A DNA stretch of 59,843 nucleotides, filler included, from Porpidia crustulata (GCA_964255105.1; 6 parts of 6 records of this genome joined end to end with filler, not necessarily neighbours in it), one strand, 5' to 3'; shown: positions 9,917 to 54,106, counted from the first letter of the whole stretch. Notes: generated by a model from the sequence alone, not told the origin. A program made the numbers and translations.

Positions 9917-10016
9917 NNNNNNNNNNNNNNNNNNNNNNNNNNNNNNNNNNNNNNNNNNNNTTAATTAATTAANNNNNNNNNNNNNNNNNNNNNNNNNNNN
10001 NNNNNNNNNNNNNNNN
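9917..10016. other. Artificial contig spacer (N44-TTAATTAATTAA-N44)
   Basis: 100 nt containing a palindromic six-frame-stop core; repeated identically five times in the window. Confidence 0.99.
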
Positions 10017-10086
10017 GCCATACTCGCCTCTGACTCCTCAATAAGACACATAATATCGTCATGTAAACAAAACGCAAATACACACA

Positions 10087-11852
10087 TCACAAACTCGCCC
10101 TCTCCTCCCTCCTCCACCCCGCTTCCTCCGCAATCATCTCCGCCGCCCTCTCCCCGATCCCCAGCACCGTCAACATCGGATTCACACTCGTCATCGTCGG
10201 AAACACGCCCGCGTCCGCGATCCGCACCCCGCCCAGCCCCTTGACCCGCAACCGGCTATCCACGACCGCCATGGCGTCGCGGCCCATCTTGGTCGTGCCG
10301 GCCGGGTGGTAGACCGTGTGGGCGACGCGGCGGGCGTACTCGCTCAGGGCGGCGCCGGAGGTGACGGCGGGGCCGGGCGCGACTTCGCGTTTGATCCAGG
10401 AGCGGAAGGGTTCCTGGGCCGCGACGCGGCGGGCGGCTTTGAGGCCGGCGACGAGGGTGGCGGCGTCGTAGCCGGCGGGGTCGGTGAAGTATTTGAAGTC
10501 GAGGGCGGGTTTGACGGAAGGGTCGTTGCTGGTGAGGTAGAGCTGCCCGGTGGAGCGGGGGCGCGGGATGTTGGGGGTCATGCAGAAGGCGTCGATGGGG
10601 GTGTCGTAGCCGAGGCGGGCGGTGTTGAGGCAGAAGGGAATTTGGTAGCAGTGCATCATGAGGTCTGCGGCGGAGTCGGCGCCGGAGATGGGTTCGTGCC
10701 GGAGGAAGACGCCGGCGTCCGAGTCCATGGTGGTTTGGTTGGGGGGGACGGGGCGGTTGAGCTCCCACATGATGATGGTTTCCGGGTGGTCGAGGAGGTT
10801 GTGGCCGACGCCGGGGATGTGCTTGATCAGGGGAATGTCGAGGGATTGGAGTTGGTCACGTGGGCCGATGCCGGAGAGGAGGAGTAGGCGAGGGGTGTCC
10901 ACGGCACCGGCGCAGAGGACGGTTTCTTTCTTCGCGCGGAGAGTCATTTTGGCACCGGATTGCAGGGTTATGTTCACACCTGTGACGGTGGAGTTCGTGA
11001 GGTTAACACGGCTCACCCATGTATCGGTCAGGATCGTCAGGTTAGGTCGCTTTTTATCGCCCCGGAGGATGGGGTGGATGTACGCTACGCTCGCGCTGCT
11101 ACGACGGCCATCATCTGGATTGTAAGAGACGGAGAAAAATCCAACTCCGGTCTTCAGAGCCCCAGTTTCTTTGATCTCCTTGTTGAAATCATGGATGACT
11201 GGGATGTCCAAAGCAGTCGAACAGGATTGGACCCAGTCTTTACACAATTGGTTGCGGTGACGAGAATGAACAGGCTGTACAGTGTTACGGAGATTATCCA
11301 GGACACGAGAAAAGGTCTTGAAAGACCAGCCTTCGCAGCCAAGAGATTCCCAAATCTTGCAATCGTATTCGAATGGTCTGAATGAGATTAGGGTGTTGTG
11401 TGAAGAGCAGCCACCAAGAACCTTTGCTCGCGAGTGACGAATATGCGAATTCCCTAGAGTCTGTTAACGATGTTGTCCAAATCGAATCTTGTTCGCTGTT
11501 GCAGTGCCCTCTTCAACGCCGTCGTTCTACACTGTCTTTACCATATCCATGGCATTGACGGCAATGATGCTTTCAACTTGTGAAGAGATGATGCAGAGAG
11601 CTACTTGCCATTTGGCTGCTCGGTGGTGCCGTAGTCATAATCTAGTTCACCGCCAAGTAGGCTCAACCATTCCTTGAGGTCAAGCACCTTGTCATTCAGG
11701 TAATCACTCGGCCCAGCCTCGATCAAAAGTATCTTCTTATGCGGTAGATATTCTGCCAGCCTGCTAGCGATCACACAGCCTGCTGTTCCACCGCCAACTA
11801 TCAGATAGTCAAAGCCATCGGCATCGTGAGACGAGAGCTCGGTTGTTGTCAT
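10087..11852 (-). CDS. codA: Choline oxidase (GMC oxidoreductase)
   Basis: FAD-binding [18 protein letters not shown]; spliced [43 protein letters not shown]; catalytic HTVYHPAGT and SVNPM; one intron 11454-11608; head-to-head with an aldehyde dehydrogenase. Confidence 0.93.
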
Positions 11853-19917: not shown

Positions 19918-20017
19918 NNNNNNNNNNNNNNNNNNNNNNNNNNNNNNNNNNNNNNNNNNNNTTAATTAATTAANNNNNNNNNNNNNNNNNNNNNNNNNNN
20001 NNNNNNNNNNNNNNNNN
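19918..20017. other. Artificial contig spacer
   Basis: N44-TTAATTAATTAA-N44. Confidence 0.99.
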
Positions 20018-29908: not shown

Positions 29909-30008
29909 NNNNNNNNNNNNNNNNNNNNNNNNNNNNNNNNNNNNNNNNNNNNTTAATTAATTAANNNNNNNNNNNNNNNNNNNNNNNNNNNNNNNNNNNN
30001 NNNNNNNN
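29909..30008. other. Artificial contig spacer
   Basis: N44-TTAATTAATTAA-N44. Confidence 0.99.
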
Positions 30009-39889: not shown

Positions 39890-39989
39890 NNNNNNNNNNN
39901 NNNNNNNNNNNNNNNNNNNNNNNNNNNNNNNNNTTAATTAATTAANNNNNNNNNNNNNNNNNNNNNNNNNNNNNNNNNNNNNNNNNNNN
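39890..39989. other. Artificial contig spacer
   Basis: N44-TTAATTAATTAA-N44. Confidence 0.99.
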
Positions 39990-40450
39990 AGGGGAGGGAG
40001 TAAGGTTTAAGAATTGGGTTTAGGGGTTTAGGGGTTTGTGTAGAAGGATCCCGTCTCAGCGTTAAATTCAGCGTAATATAGAACTAAGCACCTACAGAGA
40101 TCGTAATCAAGGCGACAACCCCATCACCGCGAATACGTCATTGTGTCTGCACCCAAGTGATGGATTTGACATCTCGGAAGAAATTCGAACCGTCGGAATC
40201 ATCGTCGGCGGTTATTCGCACGGACTCGAAGTGGAAAGAAAAAAACAAACGTAATCCTCTCAACCACGTCAAAAACCCATAACTCCAGCGTCTTTAACTC
40301 TGCTGTTAAATTTCCAACCTGGAGATTACATATCCCTACCTCTCATTTCCCTATCCCCTATTTCCCAACATATATACAACACATAACCCCGAACTTAGGA
40401 TTACCGATTGTCGTTTCCGTTTAGAAAAGGGAGCACTGAGAGAGGAAGAG

Positions 40451-40505
40451 GGAGTGGGAAGGAGTAGGGGGGAGTAGGAAGGAGTGGGAAGGAGTATTGG
40501 GGGAG
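40451..40505 (+). repeat. Imperfect 10-bp purine-rich tandem repeat (GGAGTRGGAA-like, about 5 copies)
   Basis: ggagtgggaa ggagtagggg ggagtaggaa ggagtgggaa ggagtattgg read directly. Confidence 0.8.
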
Positions 40506-42678
40506 CAAATATGAACGCTATGAGGCGGTGTGAAGGCGCATCTCAGTGAATAGAAGTCTACATACTGTGGCTTCTGGCTCCTCTGTTATTATTCTGCTGC
40601 TGCAATATTTTTGAACGGACTACAACTTGCAGGTTAGGCATCATGACATTTCTCAAGATCGAAATACCTCGCTAGATGTGATTTCTCTAGATACTTTGAA
40701 TATGGGAGAGAGTTGCGTAGCGCATTCTCGGCCGCATTGATAGAGGTTTAGAGGCAAATATAAATTCAAGAAGTTTTTTTTGAAAAGGTGTTTTGACGAC
40801 TTGCTGTGCTTGTCGCCGTGAATGAGGAAAGGGGCACGATGCAGATCGGTTGGTATTTGCGTTCCTTCACGCAGGGAGCTTTGTGTGTGGTTCGGGAACA
40901 ATCGTGAATTGATTGTCCTAGATAGAACTACGGAACTATCTATCCCTCCAGGTGGCAGTCCGTGTGCCACCAGGATCATCGGGTACGCCTTACATATTCA
41001 GTGAAGCCCTAGCCTTAACATTAAGCCTATGATAGTAAGATCAGGTAATTAGAAGTAATCATTTTAGGCATCGGGTATATCTGGATAGGTAAGCACGGTA
41101 AGGTGCCCGACTATCCTACAAATGAATGCGGGTGCCTCTCGCGGGGTTCACCTCGACGGGAAAGCAGAAAGGCTCTCGATACATTGCTTAACGAAGATAG
41201 ACTCCTAAAAACCTGGGATCGCTATATGTCGGGGATGTATTCTCGGTGCAGAAGAAATATCAATAAGTATGCAGAAAACTAGAGGAGCATTGATACCGCA
41301 TATTTCACAGCTGTAGAGAGCAAATTGAGAAAACGTGAGAGAACGAAGCTCGAAAACCTACGATTTTCAGCCTGATGAGCTTTCTCACTGTCCTTCATGT
41401 GGATGTGAGAATGCTTATGCTATACTTTCGTCGTAGATGATCTGAATTATACGTATTAAAGGAACTACGTGTAGTAAATTGGGAACTATGTCTAGTATCT
41501 ATTATGGAAACTACCTTTAAACGTTCTCCCGGCCAAGGGAGGCTGACATCACGTGACGCGGCTACCCATAAGTACAACTACACACCCCTAGCTCGGTCAC
41601 GAGCACCTAGAGCTAACCGAGAACTATGCCTAAGAGTACCCCTCCCGCCTAAAACATACCTAAATATAGGGACTCTTGGCTAAGCCTAGGGGCTGTCCTC
41701 ATTGCCATTCATTTTTTCAATATCTTTGACATGCTAATCGCTCCCATGCCAACCCTTCAACCTTCTACATACCCCTCCTCTTCATTCCGCTGATTTGCTA
41801 AGCTGCCAACAACTCTACGTTTTACGCTCCTTTGATTAGTATTGGCTATCTCCCTCCCTCTTATTCATCTTTTCGTCACGGATATGTCGTCGTGAAAATT
41901 GATGCTGTCAGCATATTTCATCTTCATCCAGTGTCCCCCAGCCCGTCACTCGGCCCTTTCATCCTCCCATATTCATGTATCCTAACTCACTCTTACGTTC
42001 GACGTGGATAGTCGGATTTTGCAAGTCAAGGCAATCATTCTATCATACCTTCTGTTACGTCGAATGAAACCGGCAGCACCACAGCGCTATCTCCGACATT
42101 TCTCCCTGTACGAAGGGAGAAATGCTCATCTTCGCGATCCCTGCTCTCGATAATCTTGGTCATGTACTCCGCAAATGCACGGACTGGCGAGTTACTACCC
42201 AGTGAGGTTCGCCACAACTTCTTTTTTTCCGTTTGGCTCGGCGACAAGGATTCTCCTCCATCAAATACACTCAATAATATCGTGCTAGAAAAACATCGAA
42301 TAACTGTCCGTGTTCTTATAATACTCGTTCCCTAGTTCGCAGATATTCGTACTCTCTCATGGAAATGCAGCACTGGCTGCTTGTATTTCCTCGTCGGGTT
42401 TTATAGAATCGACTAATCTACCTCCGTAGATAGTAGCGAGAATCTTTGCATCAGAACACCACTTATCAGAGGCAGACAGAGGCATCGTCTTTGAGTTGAT
42501 AGTTTCAACTGTCGAATAAGATGTCTCAGACTCAGCGTTTTCTGGCTTTACAAGGTTAAGAAAACTTAAGTTGTTCAAGATATGTTCTGGAAGGCATTTA
42601 AATTACTAGTATACTAACAAGGGACGCCACCTTAATCACTCCCTATTCGGATATTTTGACTCGCCAGGACATAGGATG

Positions 42679-44565
42679 TCATCTCTGTCTTCGCTGGCGA
42701 TTTCGGATCCATTTCCAAAGCGATCTAATCCACCCACCAATATCCAAGATATAGAAGCAGTAGGAGAGTAGTACTACCGGGACTGACACAGCGAAAAAAA
42801 CCCATATAGATAAGTAATTTCCGGGCGCAATCTCCGAAAAGTTCGCACCAAAGAGAGACGTTGTGAATGATAATGGGATGAAAAAAGATGCGAGAAAAGT
42901 CAGCTTCTTCAACCTCGCGGCTTGATCGATTGCCTTTCTTGACTCAGCTACAATAGCCCGGTTCATCATTACTCCCATACCGTCCGTGCAGCGCTGACAT
43001 AACTCCAAGGCTTTAGTAAGTAAACCATCATAGTCTTCCATAAGTTGGGGCACAGCTAGAGAGGCTTTCCTTTGACTTCGGGCGTCGGTCGCTGAAGGTC
43101 CATTCCCAGCAACTTGTGACTTGATCGTTCGTAATACATCTCTAATCTGGCGTACATGTCGCTCAAGAACAGACCGAAAATATTGGAGATTATCTAGAGA
43201 GTAACTTCGATCACGCTCAAGAATAAGAATGCCTATTTCATTGTCAATTTGCCAGTCCATGAGATTGAGGAGTTGCACTCCTGAGAAAGCGGCGTGTTGA
43301 AATACTACATTGACGGCATAGAATGCGTCCTGCTTTGCTGTCTCGTTGTCGACTAGTGAGTTGCAGTCAAATGGGAGCAGCATAGTGCTTTGATGTATCA
43401 TGGAATTCTTTAATGCGGCGGTCTCTGATATATTGATAGAATCGCCAGCACTTTCAGTATGTGCTTGTCTCGCTACCATCTCAACATGATGTTGTATGAC
43501 GGGAAAGGAACTAGCACTGCTTCCTGGCCCGTTGTGATTCGAGCACCAAGGTCCATTCGGCCCAAGCGCAAGGTCCCTTCCAACGTCTGCCCACACCAGA
43601 GCTGAATTGAATTAGCTCAGCCTATCCCCCCAATGATTTCGGTACGTACCAAACCAGTCTTGTTTGCTTTTGCGTATGCATACAGATATCTCCTGTTCAA
43701 CGATAGAGAAACGCTCGTCTAGTGTATAGTATTCTCTGACAATTGAATCGCCATAGCGAGCATTAGTCTGGTACAAGCGAGCATAAGCCTTCAAGCTTGC
43801 TGCCTCAGATCTTCGTCTTGCCGCCAGGTTTCTGTATTCGTTGCGAAGGGGGAAGCCATGCTGGACTATAATGGTATTTATCCGAAGAGTAATAATGTTC
43901 TTCGAGGAAGACGGCAAAGATGGCGTTGAGAACGCACTTCGATAGACTAGTGTCGTCATAAAAGCAAGATGACGATTGAAGAACTCCGGATCGATTCGAA
44001 AAACACTACCAATAGTACTAATCCAGTCCGGACTAGCATAGCCTCGTAGGAACAGGACTCTGTTGATTCTGTCTGCGGACCTAATCTGAGTCAAGAAAGA
44101 ATCAAGATCGCAGTATCGGTATTGAAGGATTCTAGATGGTTCACGAGGAGCTAAGCAATGGAGAACCGCTAATACATGTTGATCATCTAATGTGGATTTT
44201 TGATGAGTCTCTTGCTGGATCCATGCGGCCAAATCTAGATAATTTTGCCCAGGATACATTGAATTCGCGGTGTGCCTTCGTGAGTGGGCAACAATAGACT
44301 GCACATAATCCCGGGCTTTCTCTGCATTGTCGTGAACATAAGATATAAGATAATCGAGAACGGAATTACACTTACGGCGATCAATTGAACTGGACTGCGA
44401 AGATCTGGTGAGTCCGCTCTGGGGAACTTTCTCTGGCACAGGGATTTCCTCCTGGACTTCATGACGTCTTTCGTTCCACAAGGCTGCAGCATTGATGGAT
44501 TTGCTGTCGTGACCAGGCTCGTTTGAGGCCGGATATCTACCGGCTTCATGCTGGGAGCGTTGCAT
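42679..44565 (-). CDS. Fungal CorA-like protein (large soluble N-terminal domain, two C-terminal TM helices)
   Basis: FRIDPEFFNRHL, helical stalk AESRKAIDQAARLKKLTFLASFFIPLSFTTSLFGANF, second TM SIWVFFAVSVPVVLLS; intron 43602-43649 joins the two ORFs in frame. Confidence 0.85.
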
Positions 44566-45154
44566 TCTTTAAGAAATGAACCCGGCTACATTACCCTTGT
44601 GCTTACAAAAACCATTATACATTCATCGCAGAAGAGATTTTAAAGGCGCAGAGGATAAAGCAGAAATCTACAACAAGGCTGTGCGATCATTTCAATCGAG
44701 GTGCATCAAATGCTGCCTGAATGTCTAATCGCCAAGACCATGTTCCAAGTCCTAAGCAGCTTGCATGCCCAATGATGCTTCAGCCTTGCAAAATAAAGCG
44801 AAAAATTGGTCAGGAGACAGAAGATAAGTGGATGAAGCTTATCTCCAGTGTTCTTATGGGGGTTGTTATAGGGCAGGCGCAGCATTATACACCAGTGAAC
44901 CCTTAGCAAATCATTGGTGGCGGCAGAGCACTCTCTGATACGTTTACCCATCAAGACTAGCTTCTTCTGAACCTGTTCACCCCTCGTCTCGGACCCAAAA
45001 AATGCCATATTCTTGCTAAGGTAGCTATCCAATCCCATGTTGTTAAGAGCAACTGTTCATCTTCTTCCCTACTATGCGGCTCTTATACCACTCACCGTGG
45101 CCTGTGGAAGACTAATTCAAGCTACAAGACTTTCAACTTTCTGGGCCATAAGAG

Positions 45155-46212
45155 ATGGCTCATGACGATGGCGACATAGTAGCAGACATTCATTATCTAT
45201 CTCGCAGCGATGTGTACAAGACTATCAAACCATACACTCTGCGATACAAGCCCCCAGGATCTCTACCTATTACAAATGTAGCACGCGAACAGAAAGCTAC
45301 AATAATTCGCAACATGCGACAACACCCAGAAAAATTGCAGTACGATAATTGCGGGTTTCAATTTGCAAACCTGGATACACAGATGACTTGGGAAGACTTT
45401 TCGGATGTTAACAAGATTGACCAAGTTCATCGCCCGGAAATCGAGCAATGTGTGAAGGAGAAATTGCAAGCATCATCTGTACAGGTTCTCGATTACGTGG
45501 TAGGGTTTGCCTTCGCGTCGCACTCATAGAACTTTTCTCACCTGCACGGTAGGTACGAAGGCGTCATGCATCATTTCCTATTGCTACAGGAGAGCCGTAC
45601 GAATGGCAGCAGCCAGCCTCAAGGGCACACATTGGTGAAGCATTACATCAGTATTGCCTCCGTCGAAGCTAACAAGCTAGACTTTACATACAATGCGGGT
45701 GTCAGCACTATACGCAATGCATTTCCCGACAAAGCGGACGGTATATTGGCGGCTGGGTGGCAATTTGCGAAGTAAGCCCGTCTTTCGTTCCACGTCCCCT
45801 ACAATTGACCTAATGCGAGAAAGCGTATGGCACCCTCTGAGAGGTCCTTTAGTGGATTGGCCACTTGCGGTTTGTGATGCGGCTTCGGTGAACTTCGAAA
45901 ACGACACAATGGCTGGAGATGTGGTGGAAAGGGCAAAAGCCTTTGAAAACACTCAAGTACACTTCAACCATCATCAAAAATGGTACTACTTGAAGGATCA
46001 ACTTCCATCTGAACTTCTTATATTCAAGAATGCTGACAGCCAGTCGATATATGGCGCATCTCCTGGTAGGCTTGCACGCAAAGTTCTTCGTAGCCTACGG
46101 CTCTTACTTAGCTGCATTAGGTGTTCCTCACGCCTCTTTCTGCAATCCACTGGCTTCACATAATGAAACACCACGCGAAAGCATTGAATTCCGGCTGGTA
46201 CTAATGTGGTGA
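45155..46212 (+). CDS. AsaB/CmcJ-like putative Fe(II)/2-oxoglutarate-type hydroxylase/desaturase
   Basis: Spliced product contains LDYV|VRRR, RAHI|D (HxD), [45 protein letters not shown]; four predicted introns (~45499-45552, 45634-45680, 45771-45822, 46067-46120). Confidence 0.9.
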
Positions 46213-46822
46213 TCTAGAGCGTGTGGAAAGTAACAAGCAAAAATCGGTGTCAAGAGCTATCAAATCCCTTTATTGAAGGGATATGGCTCTGGGTTCGAAA
46301 CTGATTGCAGAGGGCAGGCAATGAGAAGATCACAATTTATCGTCCAAGTCTCCATAATATTCCTCCGTGCAAACCGTTTTGCTAGCTCCTTTCAACGGCA
46401 TTGAAACCGCTCGCATCAGCTCAAGTGCAGAACATACGCGACCTAATGAATTGGAAAAAGAGATCTCCTTTCGTTAAAAATTGTTCCGGTAGGAGATTTG
46501 ACAATCAACAATCGTTCTATCGATGCTTCGCAATCCTTGGCACTTAACCAATATAGGGTATATACAAGTAATGCAAGAATTGCAGAAAGGTAACCCGTCG
46601 AACAATTTCATGTACTGCCTACTCCAATCGAGCAAGCCTGGTACGGTGACTTGGCCAGGGATTGCTATAGGTCTCGTGCGCTATAACACCCATCTTGTGG
46701 GCCAGGATTATAGATTGATCAAGTTCTCCTGGTCATGCATACTTAGCTACGAGTGGCTTGTGTTTTGTGGGAAAACCAAGAAGCTTACATCAGACGCAAT
46801 CGAGGTTGGTATGAAACCAGAT

Positions 46823-47146
46823 TCAAGTATCTGAAGCCAAGGGTTTGGACTGCCGATACGATACTCGGACTGATGGACTCATTGCTGCGGTCTTAGCAGC
46901 CTCCTCGGCCTGCGCAACGCACAACTTGCACTTGCCGCCACACGAGGCTTCGTGGCTCAAGTCGCCATGGCTTGCGCCATCCAGAACAATGGTAACGCCT
47001 TTGAGTAGACCATAATCGAGCACTTCCTGAGCGCCCTGATCGTCCTGGCCATCTCCGCCTTCATCAGCGGCGCCTGTCTCCCGCGTATCTTGCTGTGCTG
47101 GAGGCCATGTGGATTTCCATGGTTGTATCTTATCCTCGCCAGACAT
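46823..47146 (-). CDS. Small hypothetical protein (~107 aa), acidic N-half with an H-x3-C-x3-C-x2-C motif
   Basis: ATG at 47146 preceded by a pyrimidine-rich leader; MSGEDKIQPWKSTWPP...DLSHEASCGGKCKLCVAQAEEAAK; GC-richer than its flanks. No family recognised, and the 3' end could be spliced. Confidence 0.5.
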   Translation of the reverse strand: MSGEDKIQPWKSTWPPAQQDTRETGAADEGGDGQDDQGAQEVLDYGLLKGVTIVLDGASHGDLSHEASCGGKCKLCVAQAEEAAKTAAMSPSVRVSYRQSKPLASDT

Positions 47147-48289
47147 GTCAGTAAGCGTGAGACTGATGGAAAGAGGCAAAAATGGATTGATGATTTGAAA
47201 CTTTCTGGTGCTGAAGTGAATAATAGTCGCAAGTATGGCAGATGTGAACCCCGCACTCGCAATGAGATAAGAGCCTCCTTCGCTCGATGGGCTTTCTACG
47301 ATCGATCGATCGCCCTCCCTCTGGAGCACCCTGTGTATATGTGCGTGCCACGTCCATCAATGCGCCAGCGTTTACTCGGATATTGCCCCGTTCGAGTGGC
47401 TTGCTTAATGAAGCATTCGATTGTTGCATCGACCGCTATTGTTGCGATGGTGGTTGAAATTAACCTCGGCCAGGAATCCTGGAAGTTTTTACAGTTCCAG
47501 CGATCTAAACATTTAGCTCAAATACTCCGGAGGAAGCCAACCAGTCATGCTCTGCGCTAGCTACTAGTGCGCACACTAATTAGCACGGCAGTAATCGTTG
47601 AGCCCTAACCCTACTTCCTCGGTCCTAATCCTATGAATTTCAACTGTCTAATTTTCATCAGAAACACTCGTTATTGGACTGCTCGTTGGAATGGAAATGT
47701 TCATGAATCTGCTTCTTCTGATGATTTTGGAAGCTGAACAGGTAGATATCCAAATGGACATATTGATGGTTAGGGTTCGATTGTCAGCCCTAACCCGCGC
47801 CACGAATGTGACTGCACTAGTAGTCGGCGCATTATGAAAGCATGACATTGTGTCGAAACAAGACGTGGGAATTCGCATCTTCAATATCGAAGCACACATG
47901 AGGTACCTAGGGTTATTATTCCCACCAATAATGTGATGACAGATTGACTGCTCTATCATGATGGGGATTTTCCCTTGCAGCTCCATGCTGCAAGCTTTCT
48001 GGAGGATTCACCAACACCTTCCCCTACAAGGCAAATGCCTAACTCCAAGCATACCTGTGGGCGTACAGCGCTATTCCAAATTTCATCACTGCTGTTGTGC
48101 GGTGTTTCTTTGTCAGCGAAGCTCAACGAACTCGCGGCCCTCCGCATTTACTCGTATTTTTTCCTCACATAAAGTGACAGCTCAATGAGATTTGTCGTGT
48201 TTACTTCTACGACAATCTACAAAGGGTCTTCATCTTCACATCCACAAGCCCAGCTGTCATTCAAGCCTCCGCTCCTTTGCCAGTTGGCA

Positions 48290-49869
48290 ATGTTGCCGTC
48301 AGCCTTGAATCCAGAGACTGTCAGCAATGGAGAATCGTGAGATGCGCATCATCTCGGGTAGCGTTGACCATACGCAGCTCGAGTAGGTAGTTCTTTCACG
48401 TCCGGTAAATTTCCTTGAACTAAGTGTACGGAAAGCATTGTTCTCATTCCAGGCCTCGGAACAGTGCCAGTGGAGAATTGGCCCTTTTGTTCTCCGCTGT
48501 GGCTCCATCGTATCCTACCCCCACAGCTATCGTCTGCACGTATCCTCACCTTTGATATTCAAATCCCTCTGAGTGATTCTTTCTCCTGGCAATATGTTTT
48601 ACTCGAAGGTAGCGTGCTTCTTAAATCACTGTCGGACTATACAAGACTCGTGGCATCGAACGAGGTAAGCCGGCAAAAGACCGGTCTCAGTTAGGTAACG
48701 AACTTACTCTAAGCAGGCTCGACCTCGGCCAATGCTCTTCATTTGTCACAGCCTGGGTGGTATCGTGTTAAAGCAAGCATTCTGCATTGCTAATGAACAG
48801 CTGTATAGATACGAGCACCTCATCTGTCTTGTATCTGGGATTATCTTTCTTGGAACCCCTCACCTTATGGCGAAGCAAGAAGACACATGGGATAGAGTCA
48901 TGAAAATACTCAAAGTTACCAATAAGACAACCCCAAGAATTGCAGGAGAGCGTTTGCTTGAGGAAAGCGCCATGTTGATAGACATCTTCATAAGATTCGA
49001 GGGTCTCCACCTTCGAGCCCCAATCCTCTCCGCTTTTGAGACCCAACCAACAACAATCCATGAGAGACGGTTTGCTAAAAACCTGCGCGCTGTCGTAAGT
49101 AGGATAGAAGTCTATTTGCTATAGCTGTAATTCAGATTTTGGGAAGAGATAGCTGATGATGCAGCTTGTTGACAAAACGTTGTGCACTACGCACGCCCCA
49201 CGAGAAGAATTCATTGCACTTCCACTCGACCATATCTCAGCTTGTAATCTCGAGAAGAGTGGCAACGAGCTCCAGACGATAATTGAGTTTATTACCGAGG
49301 TTCTAATGGACGCAGATAAGTCGATTTCCAGGAGACTAGAAGCGAGTAGGTTTGCTGCCCTTTTGATGCAGAGAAAATTAATGTGATTCCTGCCCAGTGA
49401 ACACACGATATATAACCTCGAGCGCTTACTCACCGAAAGTCAGTGATCCGAGTATTATTTCCTATGAGCGAATCGCCGAAGGTACACAGGCCTTTATCAA
49501 ATTGTCCGATCGACTTCGATGCTGATACTCGCAGAGCACGACGAAAGCAGAAAGCAGAGCCAGTCGCACGGAAGGAATTCAAGTTTGGTAACTGAGCCGA
49601 GTACTTCAGTATCATCTCAAGGGTACGAATTTGTTCCCACTATTGCGAACTTCTCCGTAGCAAGGAAGGAACCCCGCCTGCCATGCTATGTCCTTCACTC
49701 CATTGTTCGCAATCCGGATTTTTTCGGGCGTAAAGATATTCTGCGGATCTTGGAGAACTCTCTTCTTCCATCACGGGCTAAATTCATTTCGTCAGAACCA
49801 AGCAGTACAAGATACTTTGCCCTAACGGGCATGGGCGGGCTGGGGAAAACTGAAATTGCAACGGAATTT
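48290..49869 (+). CDS. Fungal NLR: SesB-like alpha/beta-hydrolase plus NB-ARC NTPase (C-terminus, probably a repeat domain, lost at contig end)
   Basis: IVLIPGLG, nucleophile elbow FICHSLGG, IIFLGTPH, SAFET, LDHISAC; then RNPDFFGRKDIL and Walker A GMGGLGKTEIA. Predicted introns include 48665-48716, 49096-49165, ~49346-49397 and ~49482-49534. Start is uncertain. Confidence 0.88.
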
Positions 49870-49969
49870 NNNNNNNNNNNNNNNNNNNNNNNNNNNNNNN
49901 NNNNNNNNNNNNNTTAATTAATTAANNNNNNNNNNNNNNNNNNNNNNNNNNNNNNNNNNNNNNNNNNNN
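49870..49969. other. Artificial contig spacer
   Basis: N44-TTAATTAATTAA-N44. Confidence 0.99.
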
Positions 49970-50248: not shown

Positions 50249-51429
50249 CTACTCTAATAATCCGCATCGGCTTACTGTGCTCTGCTCTAGAATCTCTATA
50301 TCTCGAAGAAACCTTTTAACCCCCTCATACAATATCGTCTATTTTGTTGTTTTCTCCTCATGGCCGTCATGATGAGCTTTCTCAAGTCCTTTAGCGGCCA
50401 CTTTCTCGAGGCTTACCTTTCCTTCTCTATCTCTTGTTCAGAAATTTTCACATCCACAAGTCGCCAAGGGTTCAACTTACACAATATCCTTTGTCGTTGC
50501 AAAGATTGAATTCCAGTCCTCAAAGACGGAGAACGGCACGCCTTCCCGCTCGCAGTACGTTACCAGATCTACGGAAAGTCAGGACGTATCACAGTGGTGC
50601 AAACACGATATGAGGTTTCTCGACTTACCCATGCCCTTCTTCGCAAACAGCAAATCCGTCTCACGTGCCGCGCTCAAATCGCTCACTCCGTCTCCCGCAT
50701 ACAACATAGTCGGTCGCGCCTCTCCTTTCACCTCATCGAAATGCTTTTTGTAGGGCCTGATCGCCAGACTCTTATCGTGCCCAAAATGGCTATCATCATG
50801 GAACCTGATCTGCCATCCTCCCTCCTGATCTATCTTCTTACCAGGCCGGTTCTCCACTTCGTTACTTATAATTTCGATATCATCGGCGTCGGGGCCAAGC
50901 AAGTGGACAAGGAGACCACGTATTATGGGGGTCATGCCGGAAGAGAGGACAATAACGGGGACGTTGTTGGCGCGCGACCACTGGTAAAAGTCGGCGAAAT
51001 GCGGATCGAGTTTAATGTTTGAGCAAAGGGCGGAGATGCATTGAGGAAAGGGAGTCTTGACGCTGTCCATCATTTCGCTGAAGGATTCTCTGTGACGCTG
51101 GTTCAGAAATGCTCAGCGCGATGAGCCGCATCTTCTGGTAGGTTTACGAGGGCATACCTAAAGGTTTTACGATCCTCCAAGACGTCGACATTGCCTTTGC
51201 GACGGAGCTCCACCCCGAAGCCGAGATTGTCCGTCTGGGAAAGGATCAGTGAAATGGGGGTGGAATGAGCTGAAGGCGCAGTACCATCCAATCATTGCCT
51301 TTCTATCACATTAGTGCAGAATCATCAATGATATGGAATCTACTCACTGTCTTTCAGCGTTATTGTGCCATCGAAGTCTGTAAAGAAGATGCATTTCGGA
51401 TTCGACCTGAGGGTTTCAGGGTATGGCAT
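50249..51429 (-). CDS. HAD-superfamily phosphatase (MtnX-like / yeast YNL010W-Pyp1-like)
   Basis: Spliced MPYPETLRSNPKCIFFTDFDGTITLKD|SNDWM|TDNLGFG; VLSSG; FGHDKS; YAGDGVSDLSAA; five predicted introns including a 14-nt exon. Stop position approximate. Confidence 0.88.
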
Positions 51430-52026: not shown

Positions 52027-54106
52027 TCAACAGGTCCATATTCCCACGGTACCGTCCTTACGGCCTTCCGTCAAATAGCCATCCTTGACTCGGACTCGCT
52101 CAACCGAAGCTGGATGGCGGCCCTCTGCTTCGGCCGCCACACCGGCACCGCAATCCCAGTGTCGGCCGTCTGTCTTATCATAAACTTTGGCCGCGTTCTC
52201 ACCAGCTGCAGATACGATCCGTCGGGCATCGAACATCATGCTTGTGACTGGGTTGTCGTACGCATAGGCGTCGTGGATTGAACCTGTCCGGAGGTCCCAT
52301 ATCTATTCACGAATTAGACACAGTGGATAGAGAACTTGACTGTAGAAAGGGGTTCTTACCCGTATGCTCCGGTCCAAACTTCCAGTGACCAAATGAACAT
52401 CATCAAATTGCAGACAAGTCACAGGGCCGGTATGCCCTACAAGACTTCGATGCACTTGACCGCTTCGAAGATCCCATAGGCGCACCATCCCATCCGCAGT
52501 TCCACAGGCAAGGGCTGCGTCGAAACACTGCAATGCACCGACAAAGTCTGCCGATGCATCGTGGAGTCGTCCTGTTGTCCGCCATTGCCCATCATTCAGA
52601 TTGGTCGTAGCTGAAGCTTGAGCGGCTGCCCAAAGAACATCCAGAGTCTGAACGCATCGACCTTTCACAAGATCCCATTGCCTTAGGGTTTTATCAGCAG
52701 AGCCCGAGACGAGTGTATCGCCTCTGAAGTGTAACGCAGTGACTTTGTCCACATGCGCTTCTAGTGAGAAAATTGGACAATCCTTCATACTTGATGAGTG
52801 TGGTACAGGCATAGGATCTTCAGTGCTTTCATTGCCTAATCCTTCTTCATCGTCCTCTTCTATTCGCTTGTTGATGTTATTGTCGTGCGGCACAACCTCA
52901 GCTAAGCTTAAGTCCCAAAGCCGAATGGACGCATCCATAGATCCTGTAGCTACAATACTGTCTTCGACCTGCAAGCACCTGACCGAAGCTTGATGTCCCT
53001 CGAGTAAACCTACACATCGCCCTACGTTGAGATCCCATACACGTACAGTATCATCAAGGGCCGAAGTGACCATTGTACCAAACGGTGCATCAAAGTCTAA
53101 TGCTGTAATCATGTCATTGTGCGCCTGTAATTCTCTTATGCTCGATCCTGCCTCGAAGTGCTCATGCCTTATCGGCATTGATTTTCGCCGTGAAGGCTTA
53201 TGCCTTTTGGCTCTGGGCGATGGTAGCTTCTCATATATCGATGCTGACATGAAAGATGGACTTGTTGTATCAGCTTCTCCAGCCCCATCCTCGATTTCCA
53301 CTTCTATTTCAGTTGGGGGAGTTGCAGTATGGCCCAGCGCGGTAGTATCGTCAAACTCATCCATGATGTCCTCAAGCTTGTTATCAACATCTAACAGCTC
53401 ATGCTCCAATTGTACTTCATCTTGCTCCAGGTCCCCAAGCCTGTCCAAGACTATTTTGCGCATACTGTTGAGGTTTGATATTTTATTATCAATCTCTCGA
53501 ATCTCCGATGAACACATATTCTTACGAATGCCCATCACCTCTAGCTTATGGCTCAGATTTTTTCTCTCTCGCTTCACGTTTTGCAATGGAGATTCTTCTT
53601 GGTTCTCTGATATCCCAAGCAGTTTGCGATCCCTTGTGGTATGCCGTCGATGGGTCTTCCTATACCCAATCTCTTCCTCTTCGGGCATTGTTGCTTGGAA
53701 ACCTTGAAATAAAGAATACGCATTCCCACTCTCGGGAATATTTGCAAGAAGCTCATCTGGGAGGTAAGTGAGGGCTCGATGTTGGATTTCAGAGGTCGAG
53801 AGCTTTGACCGGACTAGTTCAGTCGGTGAAGCTTTGGCGTATGAAAAGACTCTTTGCTGTATCCCAGGCCTTCTAAGCTCTTTTTGAAGCTCGCTCATGG
53901 CATGTTGATAGTGGGGATTGCTACTGTGGTCGCCAATCAAATGGTTTGCTGTAGTGGTTACCTTGCGGCCGAAGGCTTCAATCGACCGTGTCTACATATG
54001 TTAGTAACAACGTGACGATAAGTAGATATCCGGTCATTACAGTCAGGGCAGTTCCCAGAACCGAATCTTCTTGATTGCTTGGCGGAAGGACATTGCGGCT
54101 CGCCAT
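52027..54106 (-). CDS. MDV1: Mitochondrial fission adaptor Mdv1/Caf4 (N-terminal extension, coiled coil, WD40)
   Basis: [19 protein letters not shown], coiled coil [19 protein letters not shown] repeats [45 protein letters not shown] at 54106, introns near 53992-54040 and 52305-52359. Confidence 0.95.

Follow-up and report, generated by a model that had tools for sequence, protein, structure and literature searches.

Positions 42679-49869 of the 59,843-base window analysed here (the whole stretch of Porpidia crustulata DNA, GCA_964255105.1, from whose first base all window positions are counted) raise the question of whether a fungal NOD-like receptor (NLR) and the genes beside it, which encode a CorA-like membrane protein and an AsaB-like oxygenase, act together or are chance neighbours. 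A preliminary description had proposed that these three genes and a small cysteine protein gene form an undescribed NLR-centred module. We observe that the window holds one copy of a cluster that recurs in Ascomycota and consists of the CorA-like gene, an all-in-one NLR gene and, in about a quarter of cases, the oxygenase gene. By analogy with the fungal pair PLP-1/SEC-9, the hydrolase-headed NLR and the CorA-like channel may serve non-self recognition or regulated cell death as partners dedicated to each other, a reading to which we assign a probability of roughly 0.5.

Recurrence of the cluster in other fungi

Loci were collected from Joint Genome Institute metagenome contigs with patterns derived from the CorA-like alignment alone (four closer sequences), yielding 412 matching stretches and 43 confirmed loci, which fall into 27 groups at 90% nucleotide identity. 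True members of the CorA-like family, with the N-terminal domain and the CorA part or cut only by a contig end, make up 23 of the 27 groups, and the other four (L021, L034, L038 and L043) are distant or partial relatives. Partner genes were searched for by tblastn with five NLRs, two oxygenases and four relatives of the small cysteine protein, a 107-residue open reading frame (ORF). An NLR of the hydrolase/NB-ARC/DUF7779/TPR design is found in 13 of the 23 member groups, ten times with an alignment longer than 400 residues (E <= 5e-42; L001, L002, L003, L011, L012, L016, L018, L022, L025 and L039) and three times as a partial match at the contig or locus edge (L007, L008 and L020). Eleven groups have 3 kb or more of flank on each side of the CorA-like gene; the NLR is present in 9 of them, and within 2 kb in 8. 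The oxygenase occurs in six member groups (6/23; L018, L020, L022, L023, L025 and L030), and both partners are present in four (4/23). The four distant or partial groups have neither (NLR 0/4, oxygenase 0/4).

Fungal genomes have been reported to encode a mean of 46 NLRs, 20% of them with NB-ARC (Dyrka et al. 2014, PMC4986451; this and the other papers cited by PMC number are represented here by excerpts). Under an assumed per-locus rate of 2.5-10%, finding the NLR in 13 of 23 groups by chance has a probability of 1e-15 to 4e-8. The co-location of CorA-like, NLR and oxygenase genes is far above chance, and in the comparison with other genomes that the preliminary description called for the idea of a module is supported. 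Gene arrangement varies across the loci, with CorA-NLR tandem, NLR-CorA tandem, convergent and divergent orders all represented. The linked NLRs nevertheless share one design, with the same hydrolase head wherever the N-terminus is readable (in the alignment for L002, L003, L011, L016, L018, L022, L025 and the window; by eye for L012, L022 and L039).

Clustering of ORFs over all loci returned no other recurrent neighbour besides a clade-limited HAD hydrolase, encoded on the minus strand at L003 9750-10496, L011 6857-7741, L016 6724-7566 and L023 3703-4533. It lies just past the NLR in the clade of L003, L011 and L016 and near the CorA-like gene in L023, and was rejected as a fourth member because it is confined to that one clade plus L023; its presence probably reflects local synteny. 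The 107-residue ORF was rejected as a conserved member as well, since tblastn with its four relatives gave matches in 0 of the 43 loci; judged by these comparisons it is a passenger, and of the proposed four-gene module the CorA-like, NLR and oxygenase genes are the part that stands.

Two named genomes show parts of the same arrangement. In the Leotiomycete Hyaloscypha variabilis, which is distant from the lichen-forming Eurotiomycete Endocarpon pusillum, the NLR KAN0095890.1 and the second-best CorA-like homologue KAN0095891.1 are encoded on one 2,778,396-bp contig, and the two genes are probably adjacent because their accessions are consecutive. In E. pusillum, the source of the nearest named relatives of the window's CorA-like protein and oxygenase (69-73% identity), the best CorA-like homologue EPUS_01879 and the best named oxygenase homologue EPUS_01880 share one 417,845-bp contig.

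With respect to divergence, a tree of 28 CorA-like sequences places NLR-linked and oxygenase-linked members on every major branch. For the 11 pairs compared, the trees of the NLR nucleotide-binding oligomerization (NOD) region and of the CorA-like protein agree wherever they are resolved, and the patristic distances are strongly correlated (Mantel r = 0.83, with 0 of 10,000 label permutations as high), so that the congruent gene trees looked for in the preliminary description are indeed observed. In addition, per-domain identities fall in step across the CorA-like and NLR genes, with similar divergence rates. Since any two neighbouring genes passed on vertically together would also be expected to show congruent trees, the congruence indicates long co-inheritance, and not co-evolution as such.

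The proteins encoded by the cluster

The gene for the membrane protein, a divergent member of the CorA superfamily (whose fold is that of a pentameric cation channel), lies at 42679-44565 on the minus strand, encodes 612 amino acids and has two exons, 44565-43650 and 43601-42679, separated by a 48-nt intron (43602-43649). Its C-terminal exon scores 34.8 bits against Pfam CorA PF01544 (gathering cut-off 27), six full-length relatives score 27.5-44.8 bits against the same model, and the protein, which has two C-terminal membrane helices, is 69% identical to EPUS_01879. An AlphaFold model of the 69%-identical E. pusillum orthologue (P0001), built on an 11-row alignment (predicted local distance difference test, pLDDT, 68.6; predicted template modelling score, pTM, 0.67), contains an alpha/beta domain, long stalk helices and two membrane helices. 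In a Foldseek search of the PDB, the best matches of this model are full-length Thermotoga maritima CorA chains (E = 2.6e-8 over about 470-490 columns, template modelling score by target 0.47-0.55). Because the orthologue model matches full-length CorA, the seemingly unknown N-terminal 330 residues are predicted to be an enlarged CorA cytoplasmic domain; the full CorA fold is read on the orthologue rather than on the window protein itself.

In CorA proteins the Gly-Met-Asn (GMN) motif sits at the end of the first membrane helix. GMN is retained in 19 of 23 aligned CorA-like rows, and L008 and L032 have SMN. The pore motif of the window protein reads F-G-A-N-F, with GAN at 42841-42849 in place of GMN, and E. 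pusillum likewise has GAN; GMN is therefore a property of the family and not of the window copy. From the modelled CorA fold and the 19 rows with GMN, the channel looks functional. The cytoplasmic domain contains, furthermore, a conserved insert of the form W.D.GRDL..GP.GPW ... P.IQHHP.M, in which W, D, G-R, G-P-W and Q-H-H are invariant. This insert (P0001 residues about 289-326; window about 43480-43600) is modelled at pLDDT <50 and is, from its conservation, a candidate partner-binding or regulatory loop.

The CorA-like family is large, multi-copy, patchy and paralogous. Among the nearest ESM-Atlas clusters it is restricted to Ascomycota, 27 of the 30 nearest sharing the CorA family set, and a 222-residue ESM Atlas family aligns to residues 67-287 of the CorA-like protein. 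At L021, L027, L028 and L029 (about 10001-10700), matches cover only the N-terminal cytoplasmic domain (query about 120-343); no channel part was detected there, and neither an NLR nor an oxygenase lies within 10 kb of them. The CorA-like frames at L007 (875-2824), L001 (3535-5511), L018 (9863-11611) and L023 (5744-7501) contain one or two in-frame stops. Where tblastn reads through such stops, they would be either short in-frame introns or signs of a pseudogene.

The NLR gene is represented in the window by its 5' part (48327-49869, plus strand), which encodes an alpha/beta-hydrolase (SesB-like/DUF676-like) domain and the probable start of NB-ARC before being cut by the contig end. Its exons (48327-48382, 48436-48664, 48717-49094, 49165-49345, 49398-49481 and 49535-49869) give an open spliced frame, the linker exon 49398-49481 being uncertain, with a single 189-nt intron as the alternative. 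The nucleophile elbow HSLGG lies at 48747-48761 (context C-H-S-L-G-G) and is followed by G-T-P-H and later by D-H, and the Walker A motif GMGGLGKT lies at 49828-49851, just ahead of the contig end at 49869. For the window exon the DUF676/PGAP1 matches (E = 0.005-0.006) stay below the cut-off, and the homologue P0012 reaches 21.8 bits against DUF676 (cut-off 20.3); the label "SesB-like" is given here by architecture. A model of the hydrolase head, built on an alignment with P0011, was too poor for a fold search (pLDDT 53.4, pTM 0.40), and phmmer with P0011 against PDB sequences gave 0 matches at E <= 1.

The best named homologue of the head is the 1129-residue H. variabilis protein KAN0095890.1 (hydrolase/NB-ARC/DUF7779/TPR), to which the window NLR is 54% identical. 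The window NLR aligns up to Walker A with NB-ARC-bearing homologues, whose NB-ARC matches have E-values of 3.7e-8 to 3.4e-13, and DUF7779 and TPR are present in its closest homologues and in every linked NLR that is readable to its end. The nucleophile Ser is kept in the window, in H. variabilis and in L002, L003, L011, L016 and L022. The linked NLRs of L018 and L025 have H-G-L-G-G instead (Ser to Gly; 2 of the 9 readable), both at loci with an oxygenase, and hydrolysis can for this reason not be obligatory everywhere.

The gene for the oxygenase, an enzyme of the CmcJ/NvfI type of Fe(II)/2-oxoglutarate oxygenases (45155-46212, plus strand; 283 amino acids), consists of exons 45155-45499, 45553-45634, 45681-45771, 45824-46065 and 46121-46212. 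Exon 1 is 73% identical to EPUS_01880, and the exons align along the whole of this orthologue, which in turn matches the NCBIfam CmcJ/NvfI family NF041278 at E = 9e-46 and 156.5 bits (cut-off 80; P0023, 152 bits). The family assignment of the window protein, which runs through the orthologue's score and the exon alignment, bears out the AsaB-like oxygenase of the preliminary description. Two blocks of the spliced model, A-H-I-D and V-P-H-A-S-F, are conserved among the cluster-linked copies, and their His-x-Asp ... His residues are what we take to be the candidate metal-binding positions. The oxygenase and CorA-like genes share a divergent intergenic region of 589 bp (44566-45154 by the gene models), and the same head-to-head pair is found 534 bp apart at L020.

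Genomic setting of the window copy

The window consists of six pieces, each about 9.9 kb long, with N44-TTAATTAATTAA-N44 spacers between them (9917-10016, 19918-20017, 29909-30008, 39890-39989 and 49870-49969), and neighbouring pieces are not necessarily neighbours in the genome. All four genes of interest lie in the fifth piece (39990-49869). A 9831-nt Logan contig from sequencing run X1 is identical to window positions 40005-49835 (0 differences), which identifies 39990-49869 as one real short contig and the truncation of the NLR as an effect of assembly and not of biology. In a related organism from the same study as X1, positions 41612-49689 are collinear on one 8134-nt contig with 400 differences, the four-gene stretch being entire. 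The Logan contigs from both samples break at about 49690-49869, and tblastn did not find the remainder of the NLR in any other piece of the window. Runs X3 and X4 cover short parts of the piece, and no inference is drawn from the parts that they leave uncovered. In every gene model the introns are of the GT..AG type and 46-70 nt long and the spliced frame is open, and the two head-to-head pairs of the preliminary description are recovered with clean models, the CorA-like and oxygenase genes at the spacing given above and the 107-residue ORF and the NLR 1180 bp apart.

The 107-residue ORF (46823-47146, minus strand) belongs to a small lineage-restricted family with five relatives among 1.84 billion representatives, the best of which (110 amino acids) is 76% identical. 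It has no Pfam or NCBIfam match; on the strength of these relatives it is probably a real but lineage-restricted gene. Conserved features of the family (the window ORF and P0035-P0038) are M..DKIQPWKSTWPP at the start, the block DYGLLKG..IVLDG and C-G-G-x-C-x-x-C, and the unit is present twice in P0038. Since the window ORF contains 3 Cys only, the earlier label "small Cys protein" was generous. In the intergenic region between this ORF and the NLR (about 47590-47612 and about 47770-47800) we observe telomere-repeat-like CCCTAACCCTA and an inverted GGTTAGGG ... CCCTAACC pair.

To the left of the CorA-like gene, positions 39990-42678 contain no recognisable gene, in that no Pfam-bearing ORF, tRNA or Rfam match was found there. 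Within this flank, three stretches of 45-60 nt (40386-40435, about 40937-40986 and about 41603-41660) are repeated on many further contigs, both from the same sample and from related ones (runs X1, X2 and X4); no further copy was found in the rest of the window. Because of this recurrence, and because both assemblies break at about 41603, they are probably parts of a dispersed repeat, in agreement with the gene-empty, repeat-like flank noted previously. The contig starts with a telomere-repeat-like GGGTTTAGGGGTTTAGGGGTTT run (39990-40040). The telomere-repeat-like strings may represent promoter sites of the telobox type or the trace of a subtelomere. The window piece that follows, which derives from another contig, carries a HAD-like ORF of 164 amino acids (50579-51073, minus strand) and a coiled-coil/WD40 ORF of 531 amino acids (52303-53898, minus strand).

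Function of the cluster and its relation to known systems

The closest parallel to the cluster is found in PLP-1/SEC-9 (het-Z, vic2; Heller et al. 2018, via PMC12881547), in which the phospholipase/NB-ARC/TPR protein PLP-1 physically binds SEC-9, kills through its lipase head and P-loop, and may surveil its partner (PMC12881547). Both systems combine a lipid-hydrolase-type head with NB-ARC and TPR, in both the NLR is paired with one particular gene of another kind whose product is membrane-associated (for PLP-1/SEC-9 a guard-type relation has been suggested), and the adjacency of NLR and partner across lineages is conserved here as well. They differ in that the head is a patatin in PLP-1 and a SesB-like/DUF676-like alpha/beta hydrolase here, and in that the partner is an essential t-SNARE there and a CorA-superfamily channel of a large, patchy family here; the present cluster has the oxygenase as a third recurrent member and is known from sequence alone. 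If the NLR and the CorA-like protein are a dedicated pair of this kind, the TPR arm of the NLR would keep watch on the channel or on whatever is bound to it, NB-ARC would oligomerise in an ATP-dependent manner and gather the lipase-like heads at the channel's membrane, and membrane damage and/or ion flux would follow; the oxygenase would be an optional accessory by which a small-molecule ligand is made or removed. As regards the channel, we lean towards a guarded or monitored partner rather than an executioner. A modelled complex of the TPR part of the H. variabilis NLR (740-1129) with the cytoplasmic part of the CorA-like protein (75-510) scored 0.00, which speaks neither for nor against binding.

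Several observations weigh against a dedicated pair. In the window itself 3.8 kb and two genes separate the NLR from the CorA-like gene, and the NLR lacks its sensor half. Neither NLR nor oxygenase is found in 8 of the 23 member groups (four of these being contigs of less than 4 kb), and there is no NLR in two groups with good flanks on both sides, L023, which has the oxygenase, and L032, which has neither partner; L014, with 1.8 kb upstream and 6 kb downstream, also has neither. E. pusillum keeps the CorA-like/oxygenase pair, and a word-limited search, which does not show absence, returned no close NLR homologue. Linkage was counted from the CorA-like side, that is, from CorA-like to NLR, the independence of the metagenome loci is judged by their divergence only, and vertical co-inheritance of neighbours can by itself give congruent trees. 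The guard analogy is, furthermore, imperfect, because SEC-9 is essential and single-copy and the CorA-like family is large and patchy. Morchella importuna provides a lead that counts on both sides. In favour of a recognition role, its polymorphic CorA-like (PF01544) gene mimpvic32 is, together with one other gene, a candidate for vegetative incompatibility from bulk segregant analysis, with causality unproven; against it, the 23-gene interval in which mimpvic32 lies next to an Abhydrolase_3-type esterase shows 0 occurrences of NB-ARC, TPR or NACHT annotation (PMC8940278). The gene (773 amino acids, 8 introns) is likened to the one in the window by Pfam family and not by sequence.

A different division of labour, which we hold to be unlikely, would make the NLR the sensor and the channel the executioner: the NLR hydrolase and/or the oxygenase would produce a signal, either a small molecule or a lipid, on which the CorA-like protein opens as the real death or ion-flux effector, a eukaryotic counterpart of the CorA effector activated by S-adenosylmethionine-AMP (SAM-AMP) in type III CRISPR. 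The conserved clustering of the three genes fits this proposal, and conduction may matter because the GMN motif and the full CorA fold are conserved. Since L018 and L025 have Ser-to-Gly heads and yet keep the channel, the hydrolase cannot in all cases be the executioner; a small-molecule-modifying enzyme family recurs in the cluster, and the conserved, poorly modelled insert could be a regulatory site. Bacteria offer a precedent in a CorA-superfamily membrane protein that is attached to an immune sensor (PMC10600005, PMC12255297). That system, however, is prokaryotic and has Cas10 and a defined nucleotide messenger, and the fungal cluster contains no signal-synthesising enzyme of known kind. 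The oxygenase is, moreover, absent from 17 of the 23 groups, the window copy and its E. pusillum orthologue have GAN and not GMN, and the NLR has an enzymatic head of its own, the usual fungal "all-in-one" design (Dyrka et al. 2014). The PADLOC CRISPR-CorA models match the CorA-like family at 14-17 bits (E around 1e-3, from 5e-4 to 4e-3) and only at profile positions 356-436; the likeness to CRISPR effectors drawn in the preliminary description thus extends weakly to the membrane part, and the cytoplasmic sensor part is unmatched. The window exons themselves gave no match to the PADLOC CorA models. Conversely, a hidden Markov model of the fungal family found 0 matches in 80 prokaryotic NB-ARC loci (1.2 Mb, 3802 ORFs), a weak negative in that the model may miss bacterial CorA. 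We regard as doubtful the broader proposal of an NLR-controlled ion-channel death or alarm pathway in fungi, in which activation of the NLR would open a pentameric channel of the CorA type, possibly by way of a small molecule made or trimmed by the hydrolase head and the CmcJ-type oxygenase.

It is improbable, in our estimate, that the genes have no functional link and are accessory genes gathering in variable genome compartments, where an ancestral chance adjacency was inherited. L032 does have a HET-domain gene and a gypsy-type integrase, L014 an AAA/DUF7025 gene, tree congruence is expected for any vertically inherited neighbours, and 8 of the 23 groups are without either partner; against this, the linked NLR is always of the same design among the many fungal NLR architectures, and the genes have stayed adjacent although their proteins are down to 28-47% identity and their order and strand have been rearranged repeatedly. 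No major branch of the family tree is without linked members, conservation does not extend to other flanking genes, and the oxygenase, from a second, unrelated family, is likewise recurrently linked. A non-immune metal-ion homeostasis or metabolic cluster, in which a cation channel and an iron-dependent oxygenase would be served by a STAND ATPase as regulator or scaffold, strikes us as very improbable. CorA proteins transport Mg2+, Co2+ and Ni2+ (PMC8940278), CmcJ/NvfI enzymes, by their family name, act in secondary metabolism, and GMN is conserved in the family; yet no other biosynthetic or transport gene recurs, the hydrolase/NB-ARC/TPR architecture is one catalogued for fungal non-self recognition proteins, and a patchy, paralogous family is unlike a housekeeping one. 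The CorA-like protein does share Pfam CorA, two C-terminal membrane helices, the predicted full fold and, in most relatives, GMN with the canonical CorA/Alr1/Mrs2 Mg2+ channels. It departs from them in about 250 extra residues that include the conserved insert, in the GAN of the window copy, in its linkage to an NLR, and in belonging to a multi-copy family that is Ascomycota-restricted among the nearest ESM-Atlas clusters, whose scores against the NCBIfam CorA/ZntB equivalogs are 22-29 bits (cut-offs 200-292).

Returning to the dedicated pair, an NLR encoded beside its working partner is also the pattern of the amyloid-signalling clusters (NWD2/HET-S and the sesA/sesB/het-eN sigma cluster), and the SesB-type hydrolase, which the NLR head resembles in architecture, belongs to that setting. 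In amyloid-signalling NLRs a short motif at the N-terminus recurs at the C-terminus of the partner, in contrast to the hydrolase head of about 300 residues here, and BLASTP of P0002 against P0012 revealed no motif shared by NLR and CorA-like protein (best E 1.1). Our literature search found no paper describing a fungal NLR/CorA or NLR/CmcJ association. The neighbour screen of Wojciechowski 2022 was confined, in its excerpted text, to NLRs with short N-termini, neighbours of 200-400 amino acids and amyloid motifs (PMC9815663), and because of these restrictions it would miss the present cluster. Relative to the known fungal NLR/partner clusters, a CorA-type channel as partner and a CmcJ-type oxygenase as accessory are new.

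Most fungal NLRs are without a known partner, trigger or output, and understood pairs such as NWD2/HET-S and PLP-1/SEC-9 are few. The cluster offers a genetically tractable hypothesis for the target of one large class of "lipase-headed" NLRs, as well as a first candidate role for the big Ascomycota-only CorA-like family. If the channel is the guarded target, this would be a second example of fungal NLR surveillance; if it is the output, killing by way of an ion channel would be common to the immunity of fungi, plants and prokaryotes. The ion-channel pathway that we regard as doubtful would, if it proves true, be a eukaryotic parallel both to SAM-AMP/CorA signalling in type III CRISPR and to plant resistosomes that act as Ca2+ channels, and the cluster would then mark a widespread and so far unrecognised branch of fungal innate immunity.

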